Positions 15,075 to 43,324 of a DNA stretch of 64,000 bases are shown piece after piece. The notes below the pieces were generated by a model that made no database searches, was not told the origin of the DNA, and saw only the letters and a list, made by a program, of their open reading frames with translations. Position numbers and translations under genes: made by a program. How positions within the stretch are numbered: the first letter of the stretch is position 1; the number at the start of each line of letters is the position of its first letter. The stretch is taken from positions 96,001-160,000 of the forward strand of contig CBDIIB010000002.1 of assembly GCA_965279525.1 (NCBI GenBank), written 5' to 3'. This stretch comes from Tagaea sp. (lineage in GTDB: Bacteria; Pseudomonadota; Alphaproteobacteria; CACIAM-22H2).

Positions 15075-15989
15075 ATGGCAGCACCGCCCGACCTCGCGGT
15101 TTCGCCGGAGGTCGCGGCGGCGCTGGCGGCGAGCGCTCCGGTGGTGGCGCTCGAATCCACCATCGTCGCGCACGGCATGCCGTGGCCGCGAAATCTGGAA
15201 ACCGCACGGGCGCTGGAGTCCGAAGTGCGCGCGCAAGGTGCCGTCCCGGCGACCATCGCGGTCCTCGACGGGCGGCTATGCGTGGGGCTGGACGCCGCCG
15301 CCCTCGAACGGCTCGCGACCGACAAGGAAATCTCGAAGGTCTCGCGGCGCGATCTCGCGGCCCTCGTCGCGGGGCGCGGCAGCGGTGCCACGACCGTCGC
15401 GGCGACGATGGCGATCGCGGCGATGGCGGGGATCCGGATCTTCGCCACCGGCGGGATTGGCGGCGTGCATCGCGGCGTCGAGGCCACGATGGATGTATCG
15501 GCCGATCTCTACGAGCTTGGCCGCACGCCTGTGGCAGTGGTGTGCGCGGGTGCCAAATCCATCCTCGACATCCCCCGGACACTCGAACTTCTCGAAAGCC
15601 TCGGCGTTCCGGTCCTCGGCTACCGGACTGGCGATTTCCCTGCCTTCTATGCGCGCAGCAGCGGCCGGCCGGTCGACCGGCGCTGCGAGTCCGCCGGCGA
15701 GATCGCCGCATTGCTGGATGCGCAATTCCGCCTGGGTCTCGGTGGCGTATTGGTCGCCAACCCGATCCCGCCCGAACACGCCCTCGACGCGGCTACGATG
15801 GAAGGCACGATCGCCGAGGCGATCCGCGCGGCCGAGGCCGGGGGAATCGGCGGGCAGGCGCTGACGCCTTATCTGCTGGACCGCCTCAATGCGGTCACCA
15901 AAGGCGCAAGTCTTGCGGCGAACATCGCGCTTGCCCGGAACAATGCGCGGCTGGCGGGCGAGATTGCCGCCGCCTTCGCCCGGCTCTAG
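15075..15989 (+). CDS. psuG: Pseudouridine-5'-phosphate glycosidase
   Basis: PVVALESTI..HGMPWP, KVSRRD, ATTVAATM, FATGGIGGVHRG, DVSADL, GAKSILD. Confidence 0.95.
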   Translation: MAAPPDLAVSPEVAAALAASAPVVALESTIVAHGMPWPRNLETARALESEVRAQGAVPATIAVLDGRLCVGLDAAALERLATDKEISKVSRRDLAALVAGRGSGATTVAATMAIAAMAGIRIFATGGIGGVHRGVEATMDVSADLYELGRTPVAVVCAGAKSILDIPRTLELLESLGVPVLGYRTGDFPAFYARSSGRPVDRRCESAGEIAALLDAQFRLGLGGVLVANPIPPEHALDAATMEGTIAEAIRAAEAGGIGGQALTPYLLDRLNAVTKGASLAANIALARNNARLAGEIAAAFARL

Positions 15990-16402
15990 TCGATCTCGAT
16001 CGCACCGCGATTGGCCTTGATCGTCGAGCGGGCTGCCTTCGACGCGAGGCGCCGGCGCTTCGATCCCTTGGACGGACGGGTCGGCTTGCGGGCTTTGGGC
16101 CGGTGCAGGGCCATGCGCAGCAGCGTGGCGAGCTTTTCGAGCGCGTCCTTGCGGTTCATTTCCTGTGTGCGGTGGCGCGAGGCGTCGATCAGCAGCAGGC
16201 TTGCCCCCGACACGCGCCGGCCGGCGATGGTCCGCAGGCGCTCGATGAACTCGGGCGCCACGCGCAGGCGGCCCAGATCGATGCGCAGCTCGACGGCGGT
16301 CGAGACCTTGTTCACGTTCTGGCCACCCGGCCCGCTGGCGCGCACGAAGCGCCAGTCGAGATCGCGGTCGTCAAGGTCGAGTTCGGGAATCACGCGCGGC
16401 AT
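15986..16402 (-). CDS. arfB: Alternative ribosome-rescue peptidyl-tRNA hydrolase ArfB (YaeJ)
   Basis: RASGPGGQNVNKVSTAVEL with GGQ motif; basic C-terminal tail RKPTRPSKGSKRRRL. Confidence 0.93.
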   Translation of the reverse strand: MPRVIPELDLDDRDLDWRFVRASGPGGQNVNKVSTAVELRIDLGRLRVAPEFIERLRTIAGRRVSGASLLLIDASRHRTQEMNRKDALEKLATLLRMALHRPKARKPTRPSKGSKRRRLASKAARSTIKANRGAIEID

Positions 16403-16462
16403 GGCTGGCGGCACAGTCGCCCGACTTGCGCCTGCGGGCAAGCGGGTTTAGGAGTGCGGCCC

Positions 16463-17410
16463 ATGTCCGGGGTCTCGTTCGTCTGCACGGTCTACAACAA
16501 GGAGAAGTTCCTGCCCGCGGTGATCGCCGCGATCTGGCGGCAGGTTCCCGACCGTCCGCGCGAATTCATCTTCGTCGACGACGGCAGCCGCGATGGCTCG
16601 GTCGCCATCGTGCGCGAGCTGACGAAGGACTGGCCCAACTGCCGGATCGTCGAGCAGCCCAACGGCGGCCCGTCGTCGTCGACGAACACCGGGATCGGCC
16701 TTGCCACGCAGACCTGGCTGAAGCTCGTCGGCTCGGACGACGTGCTCGCCCCCTACGCCACGCGCCGGCTGATCGAGGTCGCCGAAGCGACGGGTGCCGG
16801 CGGCGTGTTCGCGAAGATCGGCTTCTACCGCGATGAATCCGAAATCCGCTTCGACGAAGCGGCCGCCGACGCGACACAAGCCGTCGTGCCCACCGATGCG
16901 GTCTGCGAAGTGATCCGCCACGGCGTATCGGGCACCTCGCCCACGCTGTTCCTTACCGAAACGGTCAAGCGGGCCGGCGGCTGCGATCCCGACGTGTTCG
17001 TCGAGGATTTTGCACTTGCGCTGCGCGTGGCGCGGCTTGCCCCGATCGCACGCTTCGACCATGTCGTCACGTGGGGACCGGCAGCCGACGAAACGCGCAT
17101 CATGGTCGGCCAGGGCCATCAGGCGCACCACGATTTCGCGCTGGCACTCGTGCATTTCCTGCGTGCACACCCAGAAATGGCGGCGCGTTACGGCCATCTC
17201 GCCTTCCGCCGTGCGGCCGGGCGGGCGTGGAAATACGCGCGCCGGGCGGCGGGGCTCGGCTGGACCTCGCGCTATCCGTGGCTTAACCTGCGCGCCTATT
17301 TCGGTCCGCCCGGCCATCCGGCCGACGCCATCGCGCGCACGATGGATGTCTATGCCCGCGGTGCCGGACCTGCCGCCAAGCCGATCATCCGCGTGGGAGC
17401 CAGGCGTTGA
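16463..17410 (+). CDS. GT2-family glycosyltransferase
   Basis: VSFVCTVYN, EFIFVDDGSRDGS, NGGPS, GSDD, EDF; SD-like AGGAG upstream. Confidence 0.85.
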   Translation: MSGVSFVCTVYNKEKFLPAVIAAIWRQVPDRPREFIFVDDGSRDGSVAIVRELTKDWPNCRIVEQPNGGPSSSTNTGIGLATQTWLKLVGSDDVLAPYATRRLIEVAEATGAGGVFAKIGFYRDESEIRFDEAAADATQAVVPTDAVCEVIRHGVSGTSPTLFLTETVKRAGGCDPDVFVEDFALALRVARLAPIARFDHVVTWGPAADETRIMVGQGHQAHHDFALALVHFLRAHPEMAARYGHLAFRRAAGRAWKYARRAAGLGWTSRYPWLNLRAYFGPPGHPADAIARTMDVYARGAGPAAKPIIRVGARR

Positions 17411-19023
17411 AGCCGCGTTCGCGCCGGGCTCCCGGCATCTTCGCGATCCTGCTGGCGATGGCGTTCGTCAACCAGCTCTTCTCGTCGGGCGATTTCGTCG
17501 AGCAGCGGCTCCAGCTCCTGCCGTCGGCGGTGTCGCTGGAGCTTGTCCTGCTGCTGGTCCTTTTCGCCGTCGTCGCGCGCGAGCCGCGCCCGCCGGAATT
17601 CGCACTCTGGCTTGGCGCGATCGTCGGCCTTGCGGTCTTCGTCCTGCGCGCGCTCGGCATCGCGATCCCGTGGTTCTTCGGCCGCGATCTCAACGTGGCG
17701 GTGGATTCGCGCTTCGTGCCGGTGTTCGTGAAGCTGCTCTACGAGGCGACGCCGCCGGTCGAATTCGGCCTGCTCGTTGCCGGCATGGCGCTCGCACTCC
17801 TGCTGGCGCTGGCTGGCGTACGCGTGGCCCTTGGCACGCTGTGGCGGGCCATGGCGCTGCGCGGCTGGGCGGGACTTGCGCTCGGATTCGCCGCCCTCGT
17901 CGCCGGCTGGTGGACGATGCCGAAGGCGCCGTCCTCGCCCGATCCGCGCCCGCCCGTTTCGGTCGATGCGGGCAGGGCCGTTTTCGCGGCAGCCGATTCG
18001 GTCCTCCGCGCCGAGGGCCTGCGCGGCGAGCATCGGGCCCGGATCGATGCCGCACAGGCAGCATTGCCGGCGCGCAGCGACTTCGCACCACTTGCCGGGC
18101 GCAGCGTCGTGCTGGTCTTCATCGAATCTTACGGGGCCGTGACCGCACGCGAAGCGACCTTTGCCGCAGCGCTCGATCCGCTGCGTGCGCGCCTCGATGC
18201 GAGTCTCGAAACCGCCGGCTTCGCGCGCGCGACCGGCCTGCTGCGCTCGCCGATCACCGGCGGCGGTTCGTGGATGGCACACGGAACGATGCTGGCGGGC
18301 GTACGGCTTGCCGCACAGGACGCCTATGAAGTGATGCTCGTTTCCGACGTGCGCACGCTCGCCCACCGATTCGCGCAGGCCGGCTACCGCACGCTGGCAT
18401 TGATGCCGCGCATCGACCAGCCTTGGCCCGAGGGCAGGCTCCTCGGCTTCGGTACGATCCGCATCCAGCCTGATCTCGAATATCGCGGCCCCCGGTTCGC
18501 GTGGGAGTCGCTGCCCGACCAGTGGGTTCTCGACCGTTTCGCGCGCACCGAGCTGAAGCCGGCCCCGCTCTTTGCCAAGATCGTTCTCGCCTCCAGCCAT
18601 ACGCCGTTCGAACGCATCCCCGCGTTCGTCGAGGACTGGTCGAAGCTCGCTTCGGAACGGGCCTATGACGGCCTGCCGGTCAAGGAATTCCCGGTCCGTC
18701 GCGGACAGGTGTTCGAGCAGGACGAAGCCTATGTCGCCGCCGTCGCCTATTCGCTCGAATCGGCCATCCGCTTCGCCACCGACCGCACCGATGACGACAC
18801 GCTGTTCATCGTGGTGGGCGACCACCAGCCGCCGCTGACGACCGCACGGCGGACAGGCGACTTCTCGGTGCCGATCCATGTATTCTCGCGCGCGTCCGAA
18901 CTGATCGCGCCGTTCATGCGGCGCGGCTATTTGCCGGGCCTGCAACCACCGCCCGGCATCGCCGCACGCGGCATGGAGGACTTCCTGAAGGACTTTCTCG
19001 CGGATTTCGGCGGCGTGCCATGA
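17407..19023 (+). CDS. Membrane-anchored sulfatase / alkaline-phosphatase-superfamily (LTA-synthase-like) protein
   Basis: About 5 N-terminal TM helices, then VFIESYG, SPITGGGSWMAH, SSHTPF and GDHQP metal-ligand motifs. Confidence 0.75.
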   Translation: MKPRSRRAPGIFAILLAMAFVNQLFSSGDFVEQRLQLLPSAVSLELVLLLVLFAVVAREPRPPEFALWLGAIVGLAVFVLRALGIAIPWFFGRDLNVAVDSRFVPVFVKLLYEATPPVEFGLLVAGMALALLLALAGVRVALGTLWRAMALRGWAGLALGFAALVAGWWTMPKAPSSPDPRPPVSVDAGRAVFAAADSVLRAEGLRGEHRARIDAAQAALPARSDFAPLAGRSVVLVFIESYGAVTAREATFAAALDPLRARLDASLETAGFARATGLLRSPITGGGSWMAHGTMLAGVRLAAQDAYEVMLVSDVRTLAHRFAQAGYRTLALMPRIDQPWPEGRLLGFGTIRIQPDLEYRGPRFAWESLPDQWVLDRFARTELKPAPLFAKIVLASSHTPFERIPAFVEDWSKLASERAYDGLPVKEFPVRRGQVFEQDEAYVAAVAYSLESAIRFATDRTDDDTLFIVVGDHQPPLTTARRTGDFSVPIHVFSRASELIAPFMRRGYLPGLQPPPGIAARGMEDFLKDFLADFGGVP

Positions 19024-20492
19024 ACCGGGCCACCGGCCACTCGCAGACCACGCTGGTCAGCGGCGCGCTTCTTGTCACGGCGCAGGCTATCCTCAATCTC
19101 GACATGGCGGGTTCGGTCGTCGCGTTCGCGGCCTTCCTGCTCCTGTGGTTCGCCGTCCGCTTCGGTCTTGCCGACCATCCGCACGACCGCTTCGGTGCCG
19201 CGAACGCGCTGACCTACGCCCGCGCGACATTCGTGTGCCTGCTCGCCGGCATCGCCTGCGGGCAGGTGCCCGACGCGCAAGGCCGGTGGATCCTGGTCAC
19301 GGCGGGCGTCGTTGTCCTGGCGCTCGACGGCGTCGACGGGCTGCTCGCTCGACGGCAGGGTCTGGCCTCGCGCTTCGGTGCCCGGTTCGACATGGAAGCG
19401 GACGCCGCCTTCATGCTCGTCCTGTCGATCCTTGCCGCCCGCGTCGGCGACGCGGGGCTCTGGGTCCTGGCGCTCGGCCTGCCGCGCTATCTCTTTGTCG
19501 CCGCCGGCTGGCGCTATCCCTTTCTTGCCGCGGCCCTGCCGCACAGCGAACGGCGGCGCATCGTCTGCGTCGTGCAGGGTCTGGCCTTGCTGGCGGCACT
19601 TGCCCCGTTCGAAGGTGCCGGCATCGCCGCCGCGACGGGGCTTGCCGCCCTGCTCTGGTCGTTCGCGGTCGACTGCCTCTGGCTCTGGCGCAATGCCGCA
19701 AGCCGCGAACCCGAGCCGGTCGCCGGCCGGATCGCCGGCCTGTTCGGCCTGGCTCGCTCGCTCGCCGTCTATTACGGCATCCCGGGCCGGGCGGCACAGC
19801 TCGACCGGTTCTATGGCGCGTTCGTGCACGAAGGCGGGTTGGCCTTCGATGTCGGCGCCCATGTCGGCAACCGGGTCGCGAGCTGGCGGCGGCTCGGCAG
19901 CCGCGTCGTCGCCATCGAACCGCAACCGCGATATGCCGATCTGCTGCGCCGGATATTCGTCGATGATCCGGCCGTGCGCGTGGATGAAGTGCTGCTCGAC
20001 GCCACGCAAGGCACCGTCGCCCTGCACCTGAGCGACCGCCATCCCACGCTGGCGACCGCGAGCGCCGATTTCATGCGCGACGTGCGCGGGGCCCGCGCGT
20101 TCGATTCCGTCGCCTGGAACCGGTCGATCCCGGTCGCGGCGACGACGCTCGACGCGCTGATCGCGCGCGAAGGCCTGCCCGATTTCGTCAAGATCGACGT
20201 CGAAGGTGCCGAGGCGCGCGTGCTTGCCGGCCTGAGCCAGCCGGTTCCGGCCCTGTCGTTCGAGTATGTGCCGGCGGCGAAGTCGGCGGCACTTGCCTGC
20301 ATCGACCGGATCGCGGCACTGGGCGACTACCGTTTCAACCGCTCGACCGGTGAAAGCCACCGTCTGGAACTCGACGAATGGGCCGACGCGCGCACGATGC
20401 GCGCGTGGCTGGCCGCCCTCACGCCGGATGAGGCGTCGGGCGACGTCTATGCCGAATGGCAAGCACGTCGCGATGGCCCACGCGCAAGCTGA
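19020..20492 (+). CDS. CDP-alcohol phosphotransferase fused to an FkbM-family methyltransferase
   Basis: DGVDGLLARRQGLASRFGARFDMEAD matches the CDP-alcohol signature; C-terminal half has FDVGAHVG, IEPQP and KIDVEGAE of FkbM. Confidence 0.85.
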   Translation: MNRATGHSQTTLVSGALLVTAQAILNLDMAGSVVAFAAFLLLWFAVRFGLADHPHDRFGAANALTYARATFVCLLAGIACGQVPDAQGRWILVTAGVVVLALDGVDGLLARRQGLASRFGARFDMEADAAFMLVLSILAARVGDAGLWVLALGLPRYLFVAAGWRYPFLAAALPHSERRRIVCVVQGLALLAALAPFEGAGIAAATGLAALLWSFAVDCLWLWRNAASREPEPVAGRIAGLFGLARSLAVYYGIPGRAAQLDRFYGAFVHEGGLAFDVGAHVGNRVASWRRLGSRVVAIEPQPRYADLLRRIFVDDPAVRVDEVLLDATQGTVALHLSDRHPTLATASADFMRDVRGARAFDSVAWNRSIPVAATTLDALIAREGLPDFVKIDVEGAEARVLAGLSQPVPALSFEYVPAAKSAALACIDRIAALGDYRFNRSTGESHRLELDEWADARTMRAWLAALTPDEASGDVYAEWQARRDGPRAS

Positions 20493-21183
20493 GCCCGCCG
20501 CGCGCGATCTGCGACCGGCGCGCACGTAGCCAGGCATCCAGGTCGAGCGACGGTTCCTGCTCGACGGCAGCCTGCGCGATGCCCTCGACGAGGGCCGCCA
20601 GCAATTCACGATCGCCGACAAGCCAGTCGGATCGCTCGATCGTCACGCGATAGCCGGCACGCGCGGCGATCCGCGCGAATGCGAACGGCGCCTGTGCGCC
20701 GAGTGCGGGGCCGAGGCCCTTTACCCGGCGCTGGTGTCGCGCGAACGCGCCGAGGACCGCGCCGTCCAGCGCATGCGGCACGGAGAATTCGTGGCGGCCA
20801 TCCACGGCCAGATGCATCAGCAGCGGCCGGCCACGCGCATGGCGCACGAGCCGGGCAAGCCACGCGAGGCCCGCAAGATCGATGAGGGCCGTCGAGACAT
20901 AGGCGTCCGCCTGCGGGAACCGGCCGCCGAGCGAGCGGCGGCATTTGCGCACGCGGGGGGCGAGCGACAGGAGGCGCGCATCGCCGTCGACAAGTGTCCA
21001 GTGCATGCCCTTGGGCAGCAGCGGACCGAGCCAGCCGGTCAACGCACCGCGTCCGGCACCTAGATCGACGACGTGCGCACGCGGCTTCAGGGTGCCGGCA
21101 AATCGCATCGCAAGCCTGCGGCTACGCGCGGCTGCATCCGCACCGGCCCGCAAGGCCAGCCAGTCGGCGGAGAAGCCGGTCAT
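20419..21183 (-). CDS. Class I SAM-dependent methyltransferase
   Basis: MTGFSADWLALR..AD.AARS, VVDLGAGRG motif I, WTLVDGD, HQRRVKGLGPALG. Confidence 0.8.
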   Translation of the reverse strand: MTGFSADWLALRAGADAAARSRRLAMRFAGTLKPRAHVVDLGAGRGALTGWLGPLLPKGMHWTLVDGDARLLSLAPRVRKCRRSLGGRFPQADAYVSTALIDLAGLAWLARLVRHARGRPLLMHLAVDGRHEFSVPHALDGAVLGAFARHQRRVKGLGPALGAQAPFAFARIAARAGYRVTIERSDWLVGDRELLAALVEGIAQAAVEQEPSLDLDAWLRARRSQIARGGLSLRVGHRDVLAIRHRRRPTPHPA

Positions 21184-22199
21184 GGTGCGAACTCTTCGAT
21201 CGCCGCCCAGAGCCGGTTTGCTTGCATGCGCCAGTCGGGGAAGCGGAGTGCCGAGGCATTGCGGGCATATAGTCGTCCGGCCGGACCGAGCAGCCGGCGC
21301 AGCGCCCGGGCGAGTGCTGCCGGATCGGCGGGCCGTACCAGCAGCCCGGCGCGCGGCGGAACGACGAGCGGGACCGCACCGGCGCGCACGCCCGCGACGG
21401 GCAGTCCGTGGGCAAGTGCTTCGGCGAATGCCATCCCGTAGCCTTCGTGACGTGAGGCAAGCGCGAACACCGATGCCGCGCGGTAGTAGCTGGCGAGGCC
21501 CGCCATGTCGGTCTCGCCGGCAAGCCGGACGCGCCGGCCAAGGCCGAGGCCGCGGATGTCGGCGCGCACGCCGGCAGCACAGTGCGGGTCGCGGGTCGTC
21601 GAGCCGACGCACAGGCTTGTCCAGCGCAAGTCGCGCAGTCGGGCGAGCGCGCGCAGCAGCGTCCGGTGGTCCTTGCGTGGCGTCAGCGTGGCGACCGTCA
21701 GGATCGTCGGCGGGCGCCGGCGCGCTCTGGGGCGGCGGGCCGCATCGGTACCGGGATCGACCGCGCGGATGCGGGCGGCATCGAGACCCATGGCACCTAG
21801 ATCCTGCACGGTCGCAAGGCTCGTGGCGACGATACCGTCGAGCCGGCGCAGCATCGTTGCCTCGCGCGCGAGAAGGGTGCGCGAAGCGGCTAGTGCCAGC
21901 CCGGTTTCGAGGCCAAGCGGGTGGTGGACGAGGGCGATCGAATTTGCGACCGGCAGCAGATCGGCGAAGGCCGGCAGGGCGAGACCATCGATTAGCAGCG
22001 TCTCGCCCGACCTGCGTCGGGCAAGGCACGCGCGCGCGGCGGCGCTTGCGGCGTCATCGGCATCTGGGTAGCGGCCGGGAAGTTCCTCGAGCGCCACGTC
22101 ATGGCCCGCGGCCCGCCACTCGCCGAGCATGCGCGCGGCGTAGCGGTAGCCGCCGGTCGCCTGATCGATGCGCCCGGGCACGATCAGGCGCAACTTCAC
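21180..22199 (-). CDS. GT4-family (GT-B) glycosyltransferase
   Basis: GTG start overlapping the upstream stop; TGGYRY, LVHHPL, VATLTPRKDH, EGYGMAFAEALAHGLP (EX7E motif). Confidence 0.88.
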   Translation of the reverse strand: MKLRLIVPGRIDQATGGYRYAARMLGEWRAAGHDVALEELPGRYPDADDAASAAARACLARRRSGETLLIDGLALPAFADLLPVANSIALVHHPLGLETGLALAASRTLLAREATMLRRLDGIVATSLATVQDLGAMGLDAARIRAVDPGTDAARRPRARRRPPTILTVATLTPRKDHRTLLRALARLRDLRWTSLCVGSTTRDPHCAAGVRADIRGLGLGRRVRLAGETDMAGLASYYRAASVFALASRHEGYGMAFAEALAHGLPVAGVRAGAVPLVVPPRAGLLVRPADPAALARALRRLLGPAGRLYARNASALRFPDWRMQANRLWAAIEEFAP

Positions 22200-22600
22200 G
22201 GCAGGTCGGCCTCGTAGGCAGCCCAGGCGACGGGTGACTCGCGCAAGAGGACCTTCATGCTCGCGTAGACGCTTGCGGTCGCGGGCCCGAGCGAGTCCGC
22301 GGCGACCTTCCCCTTCAGCAGCTCGAAGATCAGCCCGGCGAGGAACTCGGTCGTCGTGTTGGTTCCCTTGAGTGGCTCGACATCGTCGAGATTGCGGTAG
22401 TCGAGCTCGTCGAGTGCTGCGCGCAGCGTGCGGCGCATCAGCCCGATATCGACGATCAGACCGTCGGCGTCGAGGCGCTTGCGGCGCAGTTCCCACTCGA
22501 CCACGAATGTGGCGCCGTGAACGCGCTGGGCCGGCCCGAAGATCTCGCCCTTGAAGGAATGGGCGACCATGATGTGGTCCTGGACGGTAAGGCTGTACAT
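22196..22600 (-). CDS. Non-canonical 6-pyruvoyl-tetrahydropterin synthase / QueD-family (COG0720) protein
   Basis: T-fold motifs AHSF, HGATF, DYRNLD, NTTTEFLA, ESP.AWA; lacks the CxxxHGH of canonical QueD. Confidence 0.85.
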   Translation of the reverse strand: MYSLTVQDHIMVAHSFKGEIFGPAQRVHGATFVVEWELRRKRLDADGLIVDIGLMRRTLRAALDELDYRNLDDVEPLKGTNTTTEFLAGLIFELLKGKVAADSLGPATASVYASMKVLLRESPVAWAAYEADLP

Positions 22601-22604
22601 TTTT

Positions 22605-23561
22605 CTATCCGTACGAAACGAGGGGAAGGGGCGAAGCGTCGGGTGCCGCGAGCAATCCGGCGTAGCGCTGCGGCAACTCGGCGAACGGCACCGGCGTGCC
22701 GAGGTCGATGCGGTTGGCCGGATCGGCAAGCAGGCGGAGTGCGAGAGCCAGCCGTGCCGAATGGCTGCGCGTGGCGCGCCGGGCCGGGCTGACCGATCCC
22801 ACCTGCGATGCCGAAAGCGTGAGACGGCGCGAATGGAACGCGCCGCCGAGCGCGACGGGCACTTCGCGCGTCCCGTACCAGGAAAGCTCGACGACCGTCG
22901 CCTCGAAACCTGCAAGGCCAATCGCGCGCTCGAGACCGGCCGCCGTGCCCGAGCAATGGAATACGAGATCGCAGTCGCCCGCACTTTCCGCCGCGACGTT
23001 CGCGCGCGCGCGCGCGGCGGGCGAGGGATCGATCCCGGCAAGCTCGATCCCCGGTGTTGCGGCAAGAAGGCGGGTCAGGCACAGGCCGACCGCACCCAAG
23101 CCGACGACGGCGACACGGTCGCCGACGCGCGGCGGATGGTCCCACAGCGCGTTGATCGCCGTCTCGAAATGGGCCGCGAGCGGAACGGCCGTGTCGGGGA
23201 CGCCGTCGGATACGGGCATCGCCGCTGCCGCAGGAACATCGAACAGGTCCTGGTGCGGGTGGAGCGCGAACACGCGCGTGCCCGCCGCATGCCCTTCACC
23301 GGCCACAACGATGCCGGAAGCGCAGTAGCCGTACTTGACCGGGAAGGCGAAGGAGCCGTTCTGGAACGGGGCGCGCATGCGGGCATGCTCGCCCGGCGGG
23401 ACGGCGCCCTCGAACACCAGCCGCTCGGTGCCGCGGCTGATGCCGGAGTATCGCGTCCGGATGCGGACATGGCCCGGTGCAAGCGGTCCCAGCTCGGTCT
23501 CGCGCAGTTCGCAGCGCCCGGCTCCCGAGATCCAGAAGGCGTGCGCGCGGTCAGTCGCCAA
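22605..23561 (-). CDS. Zinc-type (MDR) alcohol/threonine dehydrogenase-like protein
   Basis: YSGISRGTE, FPVKYGY, HPHQD, Rossmann GLGAVG, ELSWYG, SQVG; TTG start inferred. Confidence 0.8.
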   Translation of the reverse strand: MATDRAHAFWISGAGRCELRETELGPLAPGHVRIRTRYSGISRGTERLVFEGAVPPGEHARMRAPFQNGSFAFPVKYGYCASGIVVAGEGHAAGTRVFALHPHQDLFDVPAAAAMPVSDGVPDTAVPLAAHFETAINALWDHPPRVGDRVAVVGLGAVGLCLTRLLAATPGIELAGIDPSPAARARANVAAESAGDCDLVFHCSGTAAGLERAIGLAGFEATVVELSWYGTREVPVALGGAFHSRRLTLSASQVGSVSPARRATRSHSARLALALRLLADPANRIDLGTPVPFAELPQRYAGLLAAPDASPLPLVSYG

Positions 23562-24414
23562 GGCGGCACTCGAACAGCGTGTCGGCGCCCAGCGCGAAAC
23601 GGCGCGTGGGCGGGCGCAGGGCATCGTCGAGCCGGTCGATCGGCGGCAATGCGATCGACGGCCGGCCGGAGCCGATCACCATCGGTGCCACGGCGAGCTG
23701 CAGGCGGTCGACGCGCCCGGACGTCATGAAATGCGACACCGTCCGTCCGCCGCCTTCGACGAGTGCCAGGCGCACGCCGCGCGCATAGAGGGCGTCGAGA
23801 AGGGCGTCGAGATCCATCGCATCGCCCTTGCGCGGGACGAGCAGAGTTTCGGCGCCGTCCACCAAATCGCCGGCCTGACAGCGCGCCAGCAGCGTGGGGG
23901 CCCGGCCGTCGGTAAAGACCTTGCGCCCGGCGGGTGCACGCGCGTCGGGATCGACGACGACGCGAAGACGCGTCGTGCCCTCGCAGCGCCGCACGGTGAG
24001 CTGCGGATCGTCGAGGGCGACCGTACCGGCCCCCACGATCACCGCATCGGCGAGGGCGCGCACGCGATGCAGATGGAGGAGGGCGGCCTCGCAGTTGACG
24101 TAGTGCGAATGACCCGAGAGCGTGGCGATACGCCCGTCGAGGCTCTGGCCAAGCAGGGCCACGACCATCGTGCGCTTCGCACTCGCGCGCGCCGCGACGA
24201 GCGGCAGGAAAATCTCGAAAACGCTTTCGGCGTCGGGCGTGTACTTGCCTGCGCATTGCCAGCCGCCATCCTTCGCCAGCGCCAGCGGGCCGGCGCGGCC
24301 ATCGGGCGTTCCGGCAGCAAGCAGCTGACGCACGAGATTCCACGCATCCGTCCCGTCGATCGTTCGCGGGGCCGAGCGGATCGTGACCTGTGTCGGGGCA
24401 GAGCCGTCTTGCAT
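23551..24414 (-). CDS. RibD-like pyrimidine reductase (reductase domain only)
   Basis: QSLDGRIAT, RALADAVIVGAGTV, DDPQLTVR, VEGGG; no HAE/PCxxC deaminase domain. Confidence 0.85.
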   Translation of the reverse strand: MQDGSAPTQVTIRSAPRTIDGTDAWNLVRQLLAAGTPDGRAGPLALAKDGGWQCAGKYTPDAESVFEIFLPLVAARASAKRTMVVALLGQSLDGRIATLSGHSHYVNCEAALLHLHRVRALADAVIVGAGTVALDDPQLTVRRCEGTTRLRVVVDPDARAPAGRKVFTDGRAPTLLARCQAGDLVDGAETLLVPRKGDAMDLDALLDALYARGVRLALVEGGGRTVSHFMTSGRVDRLQLAVAPMVIGSGRPSIALPPIDRLDDALRPPTRRFALGADTLFECRLGD

Positions 24415-24430
24415 GGGATGGGTCAATCTA

Positions 24431-24628
24431 TCACAACGGGCCGCCGGCCCCCCAGCGCAGCAGCCGGCCGGCCGGCGGGACCCACGCGATGCCCGCCACC
24501 AGATAGAAGACAAGATCGATTGCCCAGTGACCGGGCAGCATCCCGCCGAGCGTGACCGCCAGCGCGACATAGGCGGCCAGGAACGCGAGGATGGCGAGAA
24601 AACCGAGTGCCGATCGGGTGCTTGGCAT
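24431..24628 (-). CDS. DUF2842-like small membrane protein
   Basis: 65 aa, two TM helices, pattern FYLVAGIAWVPP..LLRW. Confidence 0.7.
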   Translation of the reverse strand: MPSTRSALGFLAILAFLAAYVALAVTLGGMLPGHWAIDLVFYLVAGIAWVPPAGRLLRWGAGGPL

Positions 24629-24657
24629 GGCGCATATAAATGTTACGAATGCTGGAA

Positions 24658-25488
24658 ATGTCCAGCCCGAACGGTCCCCTTTCCGTCTACTACGACCGGC
24701 TTTCGCGTTACGGCGCGTGGGCGCGCCTGTTCGGGGGCGATGGCGGCTATGCCCGGGCGACGGTTCACCGTCTGTTGCGCAGCGACGACCCCGAAGTGGT
24801 GCCGGCCGAAGTCATACATTCACGCATTGCCGCACATGTTGCGGCTGCTCCGTCGGCCCGCGTCCTCGATGCCGGCTGTGGCCTTGGCGGCACCTGCTTC
24901 CATTTCGCCCGCAGGTTCGGGTCCGTCTGCGAAGGTCTGACCTTGTCGCCGACCCAGGCCGCACGCGCGACCCGGATGGCCGAGGCTCTGGGACTCTCGG
25001 CAAGCTGCCGATTCCGGGTGGCGAGCTACGACGATCCGCTGCCGGATGGTGCCTACGACCTGATTGTCGCGATCGAATCGCTGGCCCATTCGCCCGACCC
25101 GGCCCGCAGTCTTGCCAACCTCGCGCGCAGCCTTGCGCCCGGCGGTCGTGTCGTCGTCGTCGACGACGTACGCGAGATCGGGGCGGACATCGGCGATGCG
25201 GCGCGCTTCATGGCCGGCTGGCAGGCACCTGGATTCATCGACCATGCGCGGTGGCTGGCTGCCTTCGAAGCGGCTGGATTGCGCGTGGCCGCTGAGGAAG
25301 ACCTCACCGCGCGCGTCCCTGTCCGGCCGGTCGCCGCGCGCGAGACGCTGCTGGCGCTCAACCGGATCGTCTCACTGGTTCCGCATTCGGGCCTGCGCGG
25401 CGTGCTTGCCTCGCATCAAGGCGGACTGGCACTCGAACGGCTCTATTCGGCGGGCGGGGCCTCCTACCGCCTGTTCGTGGCGGTATAG
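24658..25488 (+). CDS. SAM-dependent methyltransferase (sterol/tocopherol C-methyltransferase-like)
   Basis: VLDAGCGLGG, GLTLSPTQ, YDLIVAIESLAH, LAPGGRVVVVD; start could also be 24640 or 24649. Confidence 0.8.
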   Translation: MSSPNGPLSVYYDRLSRYGAWARLFGGDGGYARATVHRLLRSDDPEVVPAEVIHSRIAAHVAAAPSARVLDAGCGLGGTCFHFARRFGSVCEGLTLSPTQAARATRMAEALGLSASCRFRVASYDDPLPDGAYDLIVAIESLAHSPDPARSLANLARSLAPGGRVVVVDDVREIGADIGDAARFMAGWQAPGFIDHARWLAAFEAAGLRVAAEEDLTARVPVRPVAARETLLALNRIVSLVPHSGLRGVLASHQGGLALERLYSAGGASYRLFVAV

Positions 25489-25495
25489 TGCGGCC

Positions 25496-25789
25496 ATGCC
25501 GATTCGCGAGTCCCGCCCGCAGATGCAGTCCGCCGAGACGGTCGCGATCCAGGCGCTCGGCTGGATTGCCGGCGACGAAGAACGGCTGGGCCGCTTCATG
25601 GGGCTTGCCGGCCTTTCGGTCGACGAGCTGCGCGCGCGCGCCGGCGATCCGGAGTTCCTCGGCGGCGTGCTCGACTTCGTGCTGGAGAACGAGGCGCTGC
25701 TGGTCGAGTTCGCCGAAAGCGCCGGATTGAAGCCCGAGGCCGTGCTGCGCCTGCGCCGGCAACTGCCGGGCGCGCCCGTGTGGGAATGA
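25496..25789 (+). CDS. DUF3572-family protein
   Basis: AETVAIQALGWIA...RFMGLAG...DPEFLGGVLDF...LPG pattern. Confidence 0.8.
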   Translation: MPIRESRPQMQSAETVAIQALGWIAGDEERLGRFMGLAGLSVDELRARAGDPEFLGGVLDFVLENEALLVEFAESAGLKPEAVLRLRRQLPGAPVWE

Positions 25790-28275
25790 ACGCGCCGCTG
25801 CCCATCGACGCGGTCCTCGGCGAGCTTTGTGCCGCACTCGCAAAGCGGCCCAACGCGGTTCTCGAAGCCCCGCCCGGGGCGGGCAAGACGACCAAGGTGC
25901 CGCTGGCGCTGCTCGACGCCGAATGGACGAAGGGGCGCAAGATCCTGGTGCTCGAGCCGCGGCGCATCGCCGCGCGCGCGGCGGCCCGGCGCATGGCGCA
26001 GATGCTGGGCGAGAATGTCGGCGAGACGGTGGGCTATCGCGTGCGCCTCGACAGCCGCGTGGGGCCTTCGACACGCATCGAGGCGGTGACCGACGGAATC
26101 TTCGCGCGCCGCATCCAGCGCGATCCCGCACTCGAGGATGTTGCGGTCGTGGTGTTCGACGAGTTCCACGAGCGTGGCCTTGAAAGCGATCTGGGGCTGG
26201 CGCTGGCGCTCGACTCGCAGGCCAATCTGCGGCCCGACCTGCGCCTTCTCGTGATGTCGGCGACACTCGACGGTATCGCGGTCGCGAGGCTATTGGGCGA
26301 TGCGGCCGTCGTGTCGTCGCAGGGGCGTGCCTTTCCCGTGGGCGTCGAATGGCAGGAGCGGCCGGAATTGCGCGACGTCGTCGATGCGACCGCACGCACG
26401 GTCCGCCGCGCACTTGCTGCAGGGCCCGGCGACGCGCTCGTCTTCCTGCCCGGCGTGGCCGAGATCCGGCGCACGGCAGAACGCCTTGACGGCCTTGGCG
26501 GCGATGTCGACGTGATGCCGCTCTATGGCGACCTGCCGGCCGAGGTGCAGGACCGCGCAATCCGGCCGAGCGTGCCGGGCCGGCGCAAGATCGTGCTCGC
26601 GACGTCGATCGCCGAGACGTCGCTGACGATCGACGGTGTCACGATCGTCGTCGATAGCGGCCTGAAGCGTGCACCGCGCTTCGATCCGCGCAGCGGCATG
26701 TCGCGGCTGGAGACAGTCCGCGTGAGCCAGGCTTCCGCCGAGCAGCGCCGCGGGCGCGCGGGCCGGTTGGGACCGGGCACGTGCTGGCGCCTGTGGGGCG
26801 AAGCCGAGCACCGCCAGCTTGCCCTTTTCGACCGGCCGGAGATCGCCGAAGCGGATCTGGCACCGCTCGCCCTCGAACTAGCGGCCTGGGGGATCGCCGA
26901 TCCCGCGACGCTCGCACTGCTGGATCCGCCGCCGGCCGCTTCCTTCGCGCAGGCGCGCTCCCTGCTTGCCGATCTGGGCGCCATCGATGTCGGTGCGCGC
27001 ATCACGCCGCACGGACGCGCGATGGCCGATCTTGCCGCCCATCCGCGCCTAGCCCACATGATGCTGGCGGCGAAGGCACAGGGCCGGGCCGGTCTCGCGG
27101 CCGACATTGCCGCCCTCGTCGAAGAGCGCGACATCCTGCGCGGCTGCCGCGAGGCGGACATGCGCCTGCGTCTCGAGATCCTGCGGCGCGATTCCGAGAG
27201 CCGCCTTCCGCCGGGCGCGAGCATTGACCGGGGTGCCGTCGCACGCGTGCGCGAGGCGGCGCGCGTCTGGCGCCGGCGGCTCGACGTCAAGGGCGAGGAT
27301 GGGCTTTCGGCCGCCGGCTCGGTGCTCGCTTTCGCCTATCCCGATCGCATCGGCAGGCGACGGTCGGGTACCAATGCCAGCTTTCTGCTGTCGAACGGGC
27401 GGGGCGCCTTCTTCGCGGCACCCGAACCGATCGCGGCGGAAGACTGGATCGTCGCCGCGGAACTCGACGGCGGCGCACGCGAGGCGCGCATCTTCTCGGC
27501 ACTGCCGGTGACGCGCGCGGAAATCGAAGCCGACTTCGCCGATCGCATCGTGCGCGAACGGATCGTCGAGTGGGACGCGCGTACCGAGGCGATCGTCGCG
27601 GTCGAGCGCCGGCGGCTCGGCGCCCTGCTGATCGAGGAACGCCCGGCAAAGGATCTCGGTAACGACGAACGACAGGCCGCGATGATCGCCGGCATCCGCG
27701 CGATGGGCCTCGCCTGCCTGCCCTGGACGAAGGCCGGCGAGATGCTGCGCCAGCGCGTGTCGCTGCTGCGCCGCGTCGCGGGCGAATCCTGGCCCGACTG
27801 GTCGGACGAAGCCCTGCTGGCAACGCTCGGGACGTGGCTGGCCCCGTTCCTCGGCAAGGCATCGCGCCGCGCGCATCTTGCCGATCTCGACATCGGCGAC
27901 GCGTTGCTTGCAAGCCTCGACTGGGCGCAGCGAAAGGCGCTCGACACGCTTGCCCCCACGCATGTCGAAGTGCCGACTGGCAACCGCATCGCGCTCGATT
28001 ATTCCGTCGATCCGCCGGTGCTCGCCGTCCGCTTGCAGGAGATGTTCGGATGCCGCGACACGCCGGCACTTGCAGGCGGCAAGGTACGGGTAGTCCTGCA
28101 TCTGCTCAGTCCCGCCCGCCGGCCCGTGCAGGTGACGCAGGATCTGGCCGGATTCTGGCGCGGCACCTACAAGGACGTGAAGCGCGACCTCAAGGGCCAG
28201 TATCCAAGGCATGTCTGGCCCGACGATCCGCTTGTCGCGACACCGACGGCGCGCGCCAAGCCGCGGGGGACGTGA
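25786..28275 (+). CDS. hrpB: ATP-dependent RNA helicase HrpB
   Basis: APPGAGKTT, EPRRIAAR, DEFHER, MSAT, IAETSLTIDG, QRRGRAGR, C-terminal YPRHVWPDDP. Confidence 0.96.
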   Translation: MNAPLPIDAVLGELCAALAKRPNAVLEAPPGAGKTTKVPLALLDAEWTKGRKILVLEPRRIAARAAARRMAQMLGENVGETVGYRVRLDSRVGPSTRIEAVTDGIFARRIQRDPALEDVAVVVFDEFHERGLESDLGLALALDSQANLRPDLRLLVMSATLDGIAVARLLGDAAVVSSQGRAFPVGVEWQERPELRDVVDATARTVRRALAAGPGDALVFLPGVAEIRRTAERLDGLGGDVDVMPLYGDLPAEVQDRAIRPSVPGRRKIVLATSIAETSLTIDGVTIVVDSGLKRAPRFDPRSGMSRLETVRVSQASAEQRRGRAGRLGPGTCWRLWGEAEHRQLALFDRPEIAEADLAPLALELAAWGIADPATLALLDPPPAASFAQARSLLADLGAIDVGARITPHGRAMADLAAHPRLAHMMLAAKAQGRAGLAADIAALVEERDILRGCREADMRLRLEILRRDSESRLPPGASIDRGAVARVREAARVWRRRLDVKGEDGLSAAGSVLAFAYPDRIGRRRSGTNASFLLSNGRGAFFAAPEPIAAEDWIVAAELDGGAREARIFSALPVTRAEIEADFADRIVRERIVEWDARTEAIVAVERRRLGALLIEERPAKDLGNDERQAAMIAGIRAMGLACLPWTKAGEMLRQRVSLLRRVAGESWPDWSDEALLATLGTWLAPFLGKASRRAHLADLDIGDALLASLDWAQRKALDTLAPTHVEVPTGNRIALDYSVDPPVLAVRLQEMFGCRDTPALAGGKVRVVLHLLSPARRPVQVTQDLAGFWRGTYKDVKRDLKGQYPRHVWPDDPLVATPTARAKPRGT

Positions 28276-29075
28276 TGCTGGCCGAGATGCTGCTCTACCG
28301 GCTCACGCGCGCGGAACCTTGGGCCGATGCGCTTGGATATCGCGAGGGTGCCGTGCGGCTCTGGTCGCGCCATGGCCGCTGCAAGCGGGCATGGGCGCCG
28401 CACCTTGAGAACACGCGGCGGATTGTCGCCGAAGCCGCGCACGCGGCACCCGGCAGGCGGACCGCTTTGGTCTTCGGCTCGGGCCTGCTTGCCGACCTGC
28501 CGCTCGATGTCCTGGTCGCGAAATTCGAGAGGATCGTTCTGGTCGATGTCGTGCACTTGCCGACGGTGCGCTGGCGCACGCGGCGGCTGGCGAATGTCGA
28601 GCATGTCGTCGCCGACCTGTCGGGCGTTGCACGCGGGCTTGCGGCCGGGCCTTCCGGCATGCCGCCCGACCCGGGAAGCGATTTCGGACTCGACGACGGT
28701 TCTGTCGATTTCGTCGTTTCGCTCAATCTCGCCTCCCAACTACCGATCGCCCCTGTCGACTGGCTGGAGCATCGCCGTGGCTGGACCGAGGCGGCGGCAG
28801 CGGCCTATGGCGGCCGGATCGTTGCCGCGCATTTCGCGCATCTGCAGGGCTTTCGGGCACCGGTCTGCGTGATCGCGGACCGGTCGCGCATCTATCTCGA
28901 CCGGGACGGCCGGACAATCGAGACCGACGACGCGCTTTGCGGGTTCGTGCCGCCCCCGGCCGACGCCAATTGGGACTGGGACCTGGCGCCGCTGGGCGAG
29001 CACGACCGGAACTATGCGATCCGCAACCGCGTGTTTGCCATTCGAGAGCTGCGCGATCTCCATACAATCGTGTAA
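28275..29075 (+). CDS. Hypothetical protein with possible SAM-methyltransferase-like fold
   Basis: TGATG-coupled to hrpB; ALVFGSGLL.D, VLVDVVH and DFVVSLNLASQLP resemble Rossmann motifs. Confidence 0.6.
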   Translation: MLAEMLLYRLTRAEPWADALGYREGAVRLWSRHGRCKRAWAPHLENTRRIVAEAAHAAPGRRTALVFGSGLLADLPLDVLVAKFERIVLVDVVHLPTVRWRTRRLANVEHVVADLSGVARGLAAGPSGMPPDPGSDFGLDDGSVDFVVSLNLASQLPIAPVDWLEHRRGWTEAAAAAYGGRIVAAHFAHLQGFRAPVCVIADRSRIYLDRDGRTIETDDALCGFVPPPADANWDWDLAPLGEHDRNYAIRNRVFAIRELRDLHTIV

Positions 29076-30378: not shown

Positions 30379-31245
30379 ATGACCGCTTTGCGCATCCTTC
30401 CCCGCGCATCGACGCCGATTCTGGGAGCCCTGCTCGTGCTATCTGCGCTCTTCGGGTTCGCGCGTGCGAATGACGTGCCTTTCCGATGGGCCGTCTACTA
30501 CGGTGCGAATGCGCCGCCGGAAGCGTTCGCCGAGCATCGCATGGTCGTTTTCGATTCCGACCGGCATCCCGACATCGAGCCGATCGCGGCGCGCCGCACG
30601 CAGGTTCTGGGCTATCTCAGCATCGGCGAAGTGCATCGCACGCGCAGCTATTTCGCCGAAGTCGAACGCGAAGGGCTGCTCGTCTACGAGAATCCGACAT
30701 GGCCCGGCGCATTCGCCGTCGATGTGCGCGATGCGCGCTGGCGCAAGCGCATCGTAGATGAGCTCGTGCCGGCGATTCTGGCGCGCGGCTTTCAGGGCGT
30801 TTTCCTGGATACGGCAGACACCGCGATCGATCTCGAGCGGCGCGACCGAACGAAATTTGCCGGAGCGACGCTGGCGACGATCGAGCTGGTCAAGGCGATC
30901 CGCAATCGCCACCCGCGGATCGCGATCGTCCTCAACCGCGGCTACGAGATATTGCCCGCCGTGGAGACCGCGATCGACATGGTACTTGCCGAATCGCTCG
31001 TCACGGCGTGGGATTTTCCGAACAAGATGCCGCGTATGGCACCTGCCGGCGAACGCGCGGCGCAGGTCGCCCAGCTTGTCGACGCGCGCCGACGCACGCC
31101 CAAGCTGCGCGTGCTGGCACTCGAGTACTGGACGCCGGACGACGCCGCCAAGATCAAGGAGATCTACGCACAGGTTCGAGCACTCGGCTTCGCGCCCTAT
31201 GTCGCGACGGTCGCTCTTGATCGCGTGGTGCCGGAACCGCGATGA
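30379..31245 (+). CDS. Stand-alone PelA-like glycoside hydrolase domain (endo-alpha-1,4-polygalactosaminidase, GH166/GH114-like)
   Basis: Signal peptide; WAVYYG, YLSIGE, GFQGVFLDTAD, LNRGYEILP, AESL, GFAPYVA match the PelA N-terminal hydrolase. Confidence 0.82.
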   Translation: MTALRILPRASTPILGALLVLSALFGFARANDVPFRWAVYYGANAPPEAFAEHRMVVFDSDRHPDIEPIAARRTQVLGYLSIGEVHRTRSYFAEVEREGLLVYENPTWPGAFAVDVRDARWRKRIVDELVPAILARGFQGVFLDTADTAIDLERRDRTKFAGATLATIELVKAIRNRHPRIAIVLNRGYEILPAVETAIDMVLAESLVTAWDFPNKMPRMAPAGERAAQVAQLVDARRRTPKLRVLALEYWTPDDAAKIKEIYAQVRALGFAPYVATVALDRVVPEPR

Positions 31246-36400: not shown

Positions 36401-36652
36401 TCCGCCGCCCGGATCGAGCACGAGCGCGCGCTGGCGGCGATCGACGCGCTGTCGCCGGCGCCGTTCGCGGCGCGTGCTGTCCAAGCCTATCTCTACCACC
36501 GGCTCGGCCGGTCGGAGGATTCGGTGGCGCTTTACGGGCGTCTCTTGCGCGAGCAGCCGCGCAACCGCGATCTGCGCGCCGACTATGCCGGCGTGCTGCT
36601 GGAGCTTGGCCGGACGGGCCTCGCGCGCAGCGTGCTGGGGGCCGGCTCATGA
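33491..36652 (+). CDS. Large TPR-repeat protein (PelB periplasmic-scaffold-like)
   Basis: N-terminal hydrophobic anchor; Ala/Leu/Arg-rich helical repeats with TPR patterns (AHYYLGESLY, LARLYAQRG); occupies the pelB position. Confidence 0.7.
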   Translation: MSALHARTGGQLALAAALVGTSLFASLLIVPTVRERAVMHLRDREFDQARTAFERRLVEAGPLLDTVVPLARLYAQRGELDRAISIISDLIAAGRVEGHEAAEARRLMSLYLRWAGREAEYRANLLEIVRLEPTPADLRELSALYNFAGETDAQIGILERLIALPDASPDDFVDLAELFASRRAFQSAIDTLAALVARMPDRFDSAMLDLWLIASLEARDNDGAVSRARAHLARRAAPTDVAAVIGAFSGYRLPRLGITALEPVTSRIGPDSLTNLALMRIALDAEDAALAADLFDRQLARGLSAYAPVQLGDLIDVGLVAGRVDAAMALARSVDLAALTFAQIESLAGQALDRRQTEFLRAIAAAAGPERLSERPLLAARIYLAIDDRARAAAQARSALASASLPLDDALTLVQVFAGVELPGEALGLLSRLADNPSLPETAIGDLAQLYLLLKRAPEGAAIFERLRQQRPNSLAVATGWALVMAQAGRGDVVARWLGSGAPDALPGPVLTDLFFIGGDANSPALQLAAARRLRALEGPTPIARLRLAQAALAAGQAGEALDEARALRPLLANDEVEALYRTSLALAARRDPRLQPELRGYWRDRFADTSLVPASREEALYALIDARAWDEVLPELARRARSTPAEWLGAFVTAAADARRFDLAVPVLLDVARRPDLAPATRSEATFALIERTPPAVHLPALRRAAAELGGEWTDALEAALERGGLRDELLALLTRRAADTSLTAEAQRAVAFRLLDLSAKPAALAIFQRLAVGMPAPSPDAQQALFLMGPRPEAAQLDWIEAQARAAAGAMRIDWARALVNAGAPRRAASVLEADAAVPGRIGGPSTQLAAEAYLAAGTPADLSAFARLLAARIPREGDPANARRLAELGAAGNRADLARLGYERLFLLDPAQRDAQRQVGFFAFADGDFDRARVLVARYLAGAVPGTPADWEAHYYLGESLYRLKDRSAARIEHERALAAIDALSPAPFAARAVQAYLYHRLGRSEDSVALYGRLLREQPRNRDLRADYAGVLLELGRTGLARSVLGAGS

Positions 36653-40384: not shown

Positions 40385-40387
40385 CGG

Positions 40388-43311: not shown

Positions 43312-43324
43312 ACAAGGATACGCC

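Follow-up and report, generated by a model that had tools for sequence, protein, structure and literature searches.

The window analysed here is a 64-kb stretch of Tagaea sp. contig CBDIIB010000002.1, and positions 16463-25488 (numbered in the window) hold a cluster of nine genes, each of which is a single, uninterrupted and intact open frame (Table 1). On the minus strand, genes for a stand-alone RibD-type reductase, an MDR-fold oxidoreductase, a PTPS-family protein, a GT4 glycosyltransferase and an S-adenosylmethionine (SAM)-dependent methyltransferase (MT) follow each other with junctions of -11, +4, -4 and -4 bases, and these five genes are referred to as the core. On the plus strand, genes for a GT2 glycosyltransferase, a membrane-anchored protein of the LtaS fold and a fusion of a CDP-alcohol phosphotransferase (CDP-OH) with an FkbM-family methyltransferase are coupled by junctions of -4 and -4 bases. 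The two operons converge and overlap by 74 bases at their 3' ends, while a third methyltransferase gene (MT3) diverges from the RibD gene with 234 bases between them. The original prediction, made from the sequence of the window, of two tightly coupled convergent operons with a third methyltransferase nearby was thus confirmed in frames, coordinates and junctions. Pfam matches above cut-off were obtained for GT2, for both parts of the fusion (CDP-OH_P_transf and Methyltransf_21), for GT4, PTPS and RibD (RibD_C) and for MT3 (Methyltransf_11/25); MT and MDR gave no Pfam match and were assigned via profile search and fold.

Table 1. Genes and domains of the cluster, with positions in the window and the basis of each assignment.
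Feature	Position	Strand	Basis
GT2 glycosyltransferase, soluble, 315 aa	16463-17410	+	PF00535, 82 bits
Predicted LtaS/GacH/EptA-type phosphotransferase, membrane-anchored, 538 aa	17407-19023	+	Fold and invariant residues
CDP-OH/FkbM fusion gene	19020-20492	+	Pfam CDP-OH_P_transf and Methyltransf_21
CDP-alcohol phosphotransferase domain, N-terminal part of fusion	19020-19700	+	PF01066, 51 bits
FkbM-family methyltransferase domain, C-terminal part of fusion	19701-20492	+	TIGR01444, 72 bits, above cut-off
MT, class I SAM-dependent methyltransferase, 254 aa, core	20419-21183	-	Motif and fold
GT4 glycosyltransferase, 339 aa, core	21180-22199	-	PF13692 and PF00534
PTPS-IV (COG0720, SCO6650 type), 134 aa, core	22196-22600	-	FGPAQ signature, 3D7J match
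MDR-fold oxidoreductase, BchC-like type, 318 aa, core	22605-23561	-	Profile search and fold
RibD C-terminal reductase, stand-alone, core	23551-24414	-	Pfam RibD_C
MT3, third class I methyltransferase, divergent, accessory	24649-25488	+	Pfam Methyltransf_11/25

The RibD homologue had been described as a reductase only, and this holds: it matches RibD_C above cut-off, and the deaminase motif was found in 0/62 homologues. Its best solved relatives are 6P8C, a named DAROPP reductase, and 2AZN, which is RIB7 of M. jannaschii (PMC3631187), and it keeps the residues T131, D135 and E220-G-G of DAROPP reductases of the ArfC/Rib7 type, a class assignment made by sequence. The residue at position 152 selects between the deaminated and the 2-amino substrate (PMC3631187). 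Where E. coli RibD has Lys152, a Lys also carried by the housekeeping RibD of the same genome, the protein has Leu87, and the 58 homologues have His (23), Gln (17), Arg (15) or Leu (1) and in no case Lys, two being misparsed. The protein therefore has neither the deaminase domain nor the Lys152 by which bacterial bifunctional RibD is recognised, and is by its sequence a stand-alone reductase of the archaeal/fungal substrate type.

The absence of the QueD cysteine motif from the PTPS, noticed earlier, was likewise borne out, and the protein is of the Cys-less PTPS-IV type. It carries the PTPS-IV signature FGPAQ (PMC5445326) at F21-G-P-A-Q25. It matches Streptomyces coelicolor SCO6650 (PDB 3D7J) at E 4e-38, and reaches 46 bits with the QueD model TIGR03367, for which the cut-off is 89. 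The motifs of QueD and of PTPS-I, II and III (CxxxHGH, CxxxxxHGH and ExxHGH) are not present in the protein, which reads AQRVHGA, and it is the sole PTPS of the genome. Residues H14, H28, E85 and E121 were kept in 74/74 aligned sequences, and we take E85 and E121 to be positions that bind the 2-amino-4-oxo ring. Since RibD lacks Lys152 and PTPS-IV keeps these glutamates, a 2-amino pyrimidine or pterin is indicated, and we consider it likely that the core product carries a GTP-derived 2-amino ring.

For the oxidoreductase, the earlier label of Zn-dehydrogenase is doubtful, because S42 replaces the zinc-binding Cys and Y77-G-Y79 the GHE motif in 55/55 homologues; the enzyme is probably zinc-free, with another ligand set conceivable. 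It weakly resembles BchC (TIGR01202, 44 bits, below cut-off), which we take to be zinc-independent. GT4 matches the pterin glucosyltransferase 5ZE7 marginally (E 8e-4), as the last of 12 matches and more weakly than other GT4s, while MT has the DLGxGxG motif, kept in 51 homologues, and its model (pLDDT 97) finds small-molecule methyltransferases as best folds.

The membrane protein had been described as sulfatase/LTA-synthase-like, and it has an alkaline-phosphatase-superfamily domain after its membrane helices. Formylglycine sulfatases carry the signature C/S-x-P-x-R, which is absent from this protein (S288-W-M-A-H at the site), and the match to the sulfatase family PF00884 is weak (20 bits, below cut-off). 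Searched with its model (pLDDT 93), the best folds were LtaP, LtaS and GacH (Z 20-21, root mean square deviation 3.6-3.9, 264-278 residues aligned), with EptC and MCR-1 trailing by about 2 Z or less; at the sequence level, the LtaS-fold profile matched no PDB entry. Residues E240, S288, H398, D472 and H473 are invariant in 90/90 homologues, S288 lies at a helix start in the model, and by motif order and secondary structure they are ordered as the catalytic residues E255/T300/D475/H476 of LtaS and H650 of GacH (bioRxiv 10.1101/337519). The LtaS/GacH/EptA fold is thus upheld, together with the residues for the metal and the nucleophile, and the sulfatase label falls, as the CxPxR motif is missing: the protein is a predicted LtaS/GacH-type phosphotransferase. 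With LtaS/LtaP, GacH, EptA/MCR-1 and OpgB it shares N-terminal membrane helices and an extracytoplasmic domain of common fold, while it differs from LtaS-type enzymes in its low identity (11-17%) and in having Ser in place of Thr. The assignment of its neighbour as a CDP-alcohol phosphotransferase was upheld, with a complete DxxDGxxAR...GxxxDxxxD motif, residues D103, D106, G107, R111, G120, D124 and D128 invariant in 18/18, and about five hydrophobic segments in the domain. Because the LtaS-fold enzyme is paired with its own CDP-alcohol enzyme, an unusual donor lipid is suggested.

The cluster was compared with 300 genomes of the same class, leaving out its own genome, and PTPS-IV was found in 31 of these (~10%). 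Loci extending as far as 10 kb to either side of the 31 PTPS-IV genes, some of them cut by contig ends, were compared on filtered open reading frames, a procedure that can miss genes; they contained GT4 (31), MDR (30), MT (29) and RibD (25), further an intact GTP cyclohydrolase II (12), a creatininase (7) and YceI (9), and of the membrane genes CDP-OH (9), MdoH (9) and the LtaS-fold gene (4). The core recurs in the four annotated plasmid copies examined (of 21 records), from Thiodictyon, Streptomyces, Methylosinus and Rhizobium; the one from Streptomyces keeps the order MDR-PTPS-GT4-MT and also has CDP-OH, a creatininase and ribA. We conclude that the cluster is a real and widespread orphan pathway.

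Several variants of the neighbourhood were noted alongside. Two small low-GC genomes of 1.4-1.6 Mb (L092 in G288 and L095 in G177) have the full core with cyclohydrolase and creatininase and without a membrane module, which makes them good subjects for finding the soluble product. Loci in Acetobacteraceae-type metagenome-assembled genomes (L040, L041, L043, L044, L049, L053, L059 and L061) have RibD-MDR-PTPS-IV without GT4 and MT, and most are followed by a gene that we take from its sequence to be crotonase-like; MT was located elsewhere in 2/5 such genomes tested, whose completeness is not established. Genes for YceI and for cytochrome b561-like proteins are repeatedly seen next to the cluster (L067, L072, L074-L077, L084, L088, L090, L091 and L097), which hints at a redox function in the envelope; in the genome of the window no YceI was found.

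Whether core and membrane genes belong together was put to a co-occurrence check, set beforehand as a refutation test, and the check came out in favour of the link. Cluster-type CDP-OH was found in 15/300 genomes of the class, exactly those 15 that have both PTPS-IV and the LtaS-fold gene, while the LtaS-fold gene was found in 16/300, 15 of these with PTPS-IV. The association holds even where the genes are unlinked, as the LtaS-fold gene is distant from the core and in unrelated surroundings in 11/15 genomes. Nine of the 15 CDP-OH genomes contributed to the CDP-OH profile and the other six did not, and the Fisher P values for co-occurrence (<1e-14) overstate the case because kin are not independent. 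The CDP-OH and LtaS-fold domains are also fused in 49/50 CDP-OH homologues longer than 560 aa, some of them labelled as Actinomycetes, among the best 8000 word-sharing candidates scored. In a second class sample (the class of G321, 290 genomes scored), PTPS-IV was present at 87 bits or more in nine genomes, one of them the seed, and all seven genomes with CDP-OH above 130 bits were among these nine; three weaker CDP-OH matches (63-109 bits) were in genomes without PTPS-IV. Core and membrane module are therefore very probably functionally linked.

The remaining PTPS-IV genomes mostly have another membrane gene. Of the 16 PTPS-IV genomes that lack CDP-OH, 14 have an MdoH/OpgH above 750 bits, a score reached in no other genome of the sample (next score 650), and none of these 14 has a CDP-OH or LtaS-fold gene; nine of them contributed to the MdoH profile and five did not. 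Since the CDP/LtaS and MdoH sets show no overlap, the core has two interchangeable envelope modules. The dedicated MdoH enzymes form one clade (SH-aLRT 100) apart from opgG-linked enzymes, in a tree of 46 rows made by a quick method with SH-aLRT only and leaving out the partial L047 and several lower-scoring matches; they keep the DxD, HD and RxxRW motifs, and the CDP-OH and MdoH profiles are unrelated to each other. Clade MdoH lies inside the core locus in 9/14 genomes and often takes the slot that CDP-OH fills elsewhere, either divergent from the MDR gene or adjoining FkbM and RibD. The five unlinked copies lie between RibD and FkbM (G179), next to FkbM (G266) or next to opgC (three), and no opgG neighbour was found at the unlinked copies fetched. 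FkbM itself, with a strong match in 11/31 PTPS-IV genomes (7/15 with the CDP module and 4/14 with the MdoH module) and absent at L027, is accessory and follows either envelope module. The lipid-headgroup route of the original prediction is therefore retained as co-occurring with the core, but as one of two alternatives that is missing from 16/31 PTPS-IV genomes.

An opgG-less MdoH of another clade was seen in one operon with CDP-OH, FkbM and RibD at L138 (G031:C1:2531000-2545000), and another one beside the cluster at L038; the other-clade enzymes at G031 and L038 are possibly a second recruitment. Neither MdoH nor a cluster-type cyclohydrolase was found in the genome of the window. We rejected an OpgH-made or cyclic glucan as obligatory acceptor, as there is no MdoH here or in 8/15 CDP/LtaS genomes, and no PF10091 here.

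Other parts of the original prediction turned out to be local. Among the 31 class loci and close relatives compared, the convergent layout is confined to loci of the genus and to L030, and so cannot be taken as general. Of the 16 closest loci, 14 have the GT2 gene beside the LtaS-fold gene and the remaining two are cut or partial; within the genus, GT2 is conserved to the same degree as PTPS-IV (mean identity 84%, 13 loci). It was present in 0/31 class loci, gave no full-length match in 5/5 CDP/LtaS genomes, and was not found full-length outside the genus with the queries used; a metagenome scan with GT2 found 10 close relatives, which share the layout as far as the contig reaches, and four weak matches. 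GT2 is thus a genus-specific addition instead of a general part of the pathway. MT3 is restricted to close kin: beyond the loci of the genus it occurs at L030 and in G264, a genome of the same family (1/31 class loci), with a full-length match in 1/5 CDP/LtaS genomes; the search for its homologues gave 707 proteins, without genomic context. The flanks of the cluster (15075-16441 and 25780-29075) appear ordinary, with a gene of the pseudouridine glycosidase family, an ArfB-like gene with an RF-1 domain, a gene that we take from its sequence to encode an HrpB-like helicase, and a 267-aa open reading frame without a Pfam or NCBIfam match. At 5 kb from the cluster, positions 30379-44254 contain a Pel-like polysaccharide locus with a GH114 hydrolase and its partner (750 aa) as separate proteins, as well as TPR proteins, a GAF protein, an epimerase and PelF, the latter above its NCBIfam cut-off (470 bits).

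From the genes, motifs, folds, co-occurrence, fusions and module exchange described above we infer a two-module pathway, whose reactions, step order, lipid and acceptor are given here by analogy and to which we allow an even chance: the core would make a methylated 2-amino pyrimidine or pterin polyol glycoside, which CDP-OH would load and the LtaS-fold enzyme unload. RibD would convert 2,5-diamino-6-ribosylamino-pyrimidinone 5'-phosphate, a ring-opened GTP derivative, to its ribityl form without deamination, after which the putatively zinc-free MDR enzyme and PTPS-IV may rework the side chain or close the ring, giving a 2-amino pyrimidine or pterin polyol. GT4 would attach a sugar and MT a methyl group, and the resulting product X would be joined by the CDP-OH enzyme with CDP-diacylglycerol to phosphatidyl-X. 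At the outer face of the inner membrane, Ser288 of the LtaS-fold enzyme would attack the phosphodiester and free diacylglycerol, and X-phosphate would be passed on, either to a glycan in the periplasm or at the surface or to water. Elsewhere the dedicated OpgH-type synthase would deliver instead, and FkbM, MT3 and GT2 would be lineage-specific tailoring enzymes. As core-only genomes exist, X may be useful by itself, with the modules delivering or anchoring it.

A number of observations weigh against this pathway. Neither module accompanies the core in five genomes (G177, G288, G516, G322 and G325), and CDP-OH adjoins an MdoH of another clade in G031 and G324. The modules follow families (11 vs 9, none split), so that the module counts are not independent. 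In the second sample the LtaS-fold gene was found in 4/7 CDP-positive genomes and was missing from 3/7, G324 has CDP-OH without the LtaS-fold gene, and in G054 the LtaS-fold gene occurs with both PTPS-IV and CDP-OH absent. No flippase-type gene lies within the cluster, the equivalence with LtaS residues rests on motif order and secondary structure instead of a residue-level superposition, and Arg stands at the Lys152 position in 15/58 RibD homologues. On the side of supply, RibA was above cut-off in 0/19 genomes of the genus (this one and 18 relatives), with no intact GTP cyclohydrolase II, and 6/31 PTPS-IV genomes have no RibA at E 1e-30. As RibA is missing in the genus, the link to GTP is weakened for this copy, though not removed.

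A candidate source of ring-opened GTP in the genus is a cyclohydrolase, presumably of the URC1 type, which is encoded beside upp and has three Cys; it is covered, together with the rib operon with its Cys-less RibBX, by G000:C4:694287-697707 and C4:900376-903547. The genome also has seven creatininase-family genes. In alphaproteobacteria the same intermediate is made through a formamidase of the creatininase family, and a cyclohydrolase still to be discovered has been postulated (PMC9478397). As a separate observation, tgt and queF motifs are present at G000:C2:85843-87589, while QueC, QueE and QueA patterns (which may miss variants) and QueD were not found in the genome; together this suggests, at the level of motifs, salvage of a queuosine precursor.

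Several other explanations were weighed. It is conceivable, though unlikely, that the core glycoside is exported and serves as acceptor, with CDP-OH making the donor phospholipid and the LtaS-fold enzyme transferring its head group onto the glycoside in the manner of OpgB. OpgB does accept beta-glucosides such as arbutin, an aryl glucoside (PMC3818809), flippase-like LPG_synthase_TM genes occur at some loci, and the MdoH variant, with opgC beside it in 4/14 genomes, suggests a glucan-type product outside the membrane. However, CDP-OH is found inside the core locus in 9/15 genomes, against 4/15 for the LtaS-fold gene, persists without the latter, and is fused to FkbM here, and so fits an enzyme that handles the core product. 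We regard it as rather improbable that phosphatidyl-X is itself the end product, a new membrane lipid which the LtaS-fold protein merely remodels or hydrolyses, with no surface acceptor modified: while CDP-OH occurs without the LtaS-fold gene in G576, G414, G484 and G324, and is often adjoined by YceI, a lipid-binding family, this explanation sits poorly with the 15/15 co-occurrence and the frequent CDP-OH/LtaS-fold fusion, and leaves the replacement by a glucan synthase unexplained.

The chances are slim that the ring is cleaved off and that the head group is formed by a ribitol-like or sugar-polyol phosphate. CDP-alcohol transferases are established to act on polyols, and the nearest solved relatives of the MDR enzyme include polyol dehydrogenases, but the complete conservation of E85 and E121, with their presumed role in ring binding, speaks against this, and five core enzymes would be a costly way to a polyol. 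Slimmer by a little is the prospect that the core belongs to one of the known cofactor pathways (F420, riboflavin, folate or queuosine) with the membrane genes hitch-hiking. A 2016 review gives, as unpublished, a role of PTPS-IV in F420 synthesis (PMC5041015), and the genome has no canonical RibA or other PTPS and does have the queF and tgt motifs. Against this, CofD is absent from this genome and above cut-off in 6/32 PTPS-IV genomes (CofG and CofH were not searched), FolE and a separate bifunctional ribD-ribE-ribBX-ribH operon are present in the genome and a QueC/QueE motif was not found (by patterns that may miss variants), and the membrane genes track the core even when unlinked. Three genomes (G005, G007 and G009) lack both RibA and PTPS-IV, and on this ground we rejected PTPS-IV as the missing housekeeping cyclohydrolase. 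That two unrelated operons came to lie side by side by chance is hardly credible: the layout, GT2 and MT3 are indeed local, but the co-occurrence across genomes and the gene fusions refute chance for CDP-OH and the LtaS-fold gene, though not for GT2.

The two-module pathway was also set against known systems. With the SCO6650 neighbourhood the cluster shares the FGPAQ signature and the RibD_C neighbour, and it differs in having no GTP cyclohydrolase II or creatininase and in having the CDP-OH/FkbM fusion, GT2 and MT3. The archaeal/fungal riboflavin route (ArfC/Rib7, ArfB and BrbF) likewise has a stand-alone reductase without Lys152, and creatininase-family partners are present in other copies of the cluster, whereas the cluster has no linked gene for a deaminase, lumazine synthase or riboflavin synthase, and the rib operon lies apart from it in the genome. 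Cyanobacterial pterin glycosides (cyanopterin and the tetrahydrobiopterin (BH4) glucoside, with the glycosyltransferases PgtA/BGluT) offer a precedent for a pterin with sugar and O-methyl groups (PMC3546692), but start from GTP cyclohydrolase I and, in the literature covered, have no lipid module; GT4 is also no closer to BGluT (5ZE7) than to other GT4s. Compared with OpgH/MdoH glucan synthases, the enzymes of the alternative module are a separate clade without opgG, found only in PTPS-IV genomes of the sample. The description of the pathway as undescribed needs to be narrowed, as PTPS-IV with PF00925 and RibD_C as neighbours is in print (PMC5445326), while no paper was found on the product or the membrane modules; the primary PTPS-IV papers, which lie outside the literature covered, may list more neighbours. 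PTPS-IV, its structure and its RibD and cyclohydrolase neighbours are therefore known, with no product named in the literature covered; the genome-level co-occurrence test, the module exchange and the substrate-specificity reading of RibD are new here.

PTPS-IV is a named and crystallised subfamily whose role is given solely as unpublished in the literature covered, and its link to two mutually exclusive modules directs the search for its product to inner-membrane lipids and periplasmic glucans, with core-only, CDP/LtaS-type and OpgH-type organisms as built-in controls. The genus also offers a clean case of a missing first riboflavin enzyme in alphaproteobacteria. More tentatively, and at somewhat less than an even chance, many bacteria may make an undescribed phospholipid with a methylated, glycosylated GTP-derived pterin or diaminopyrimidine head group as a carrier onto periplasmic or surface glycans, with about half of the alphaproteobacterial carriers of the core using the OpgH clade, and the heterocycle glycoside as primer or cargo. 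If true, a phospholipid or glucan bearing a heterocycle would represent a new kind of envelope chemistry, the group so placed would be redox- or UV-active, and some OpgH enzymes without OpgG could be explained.

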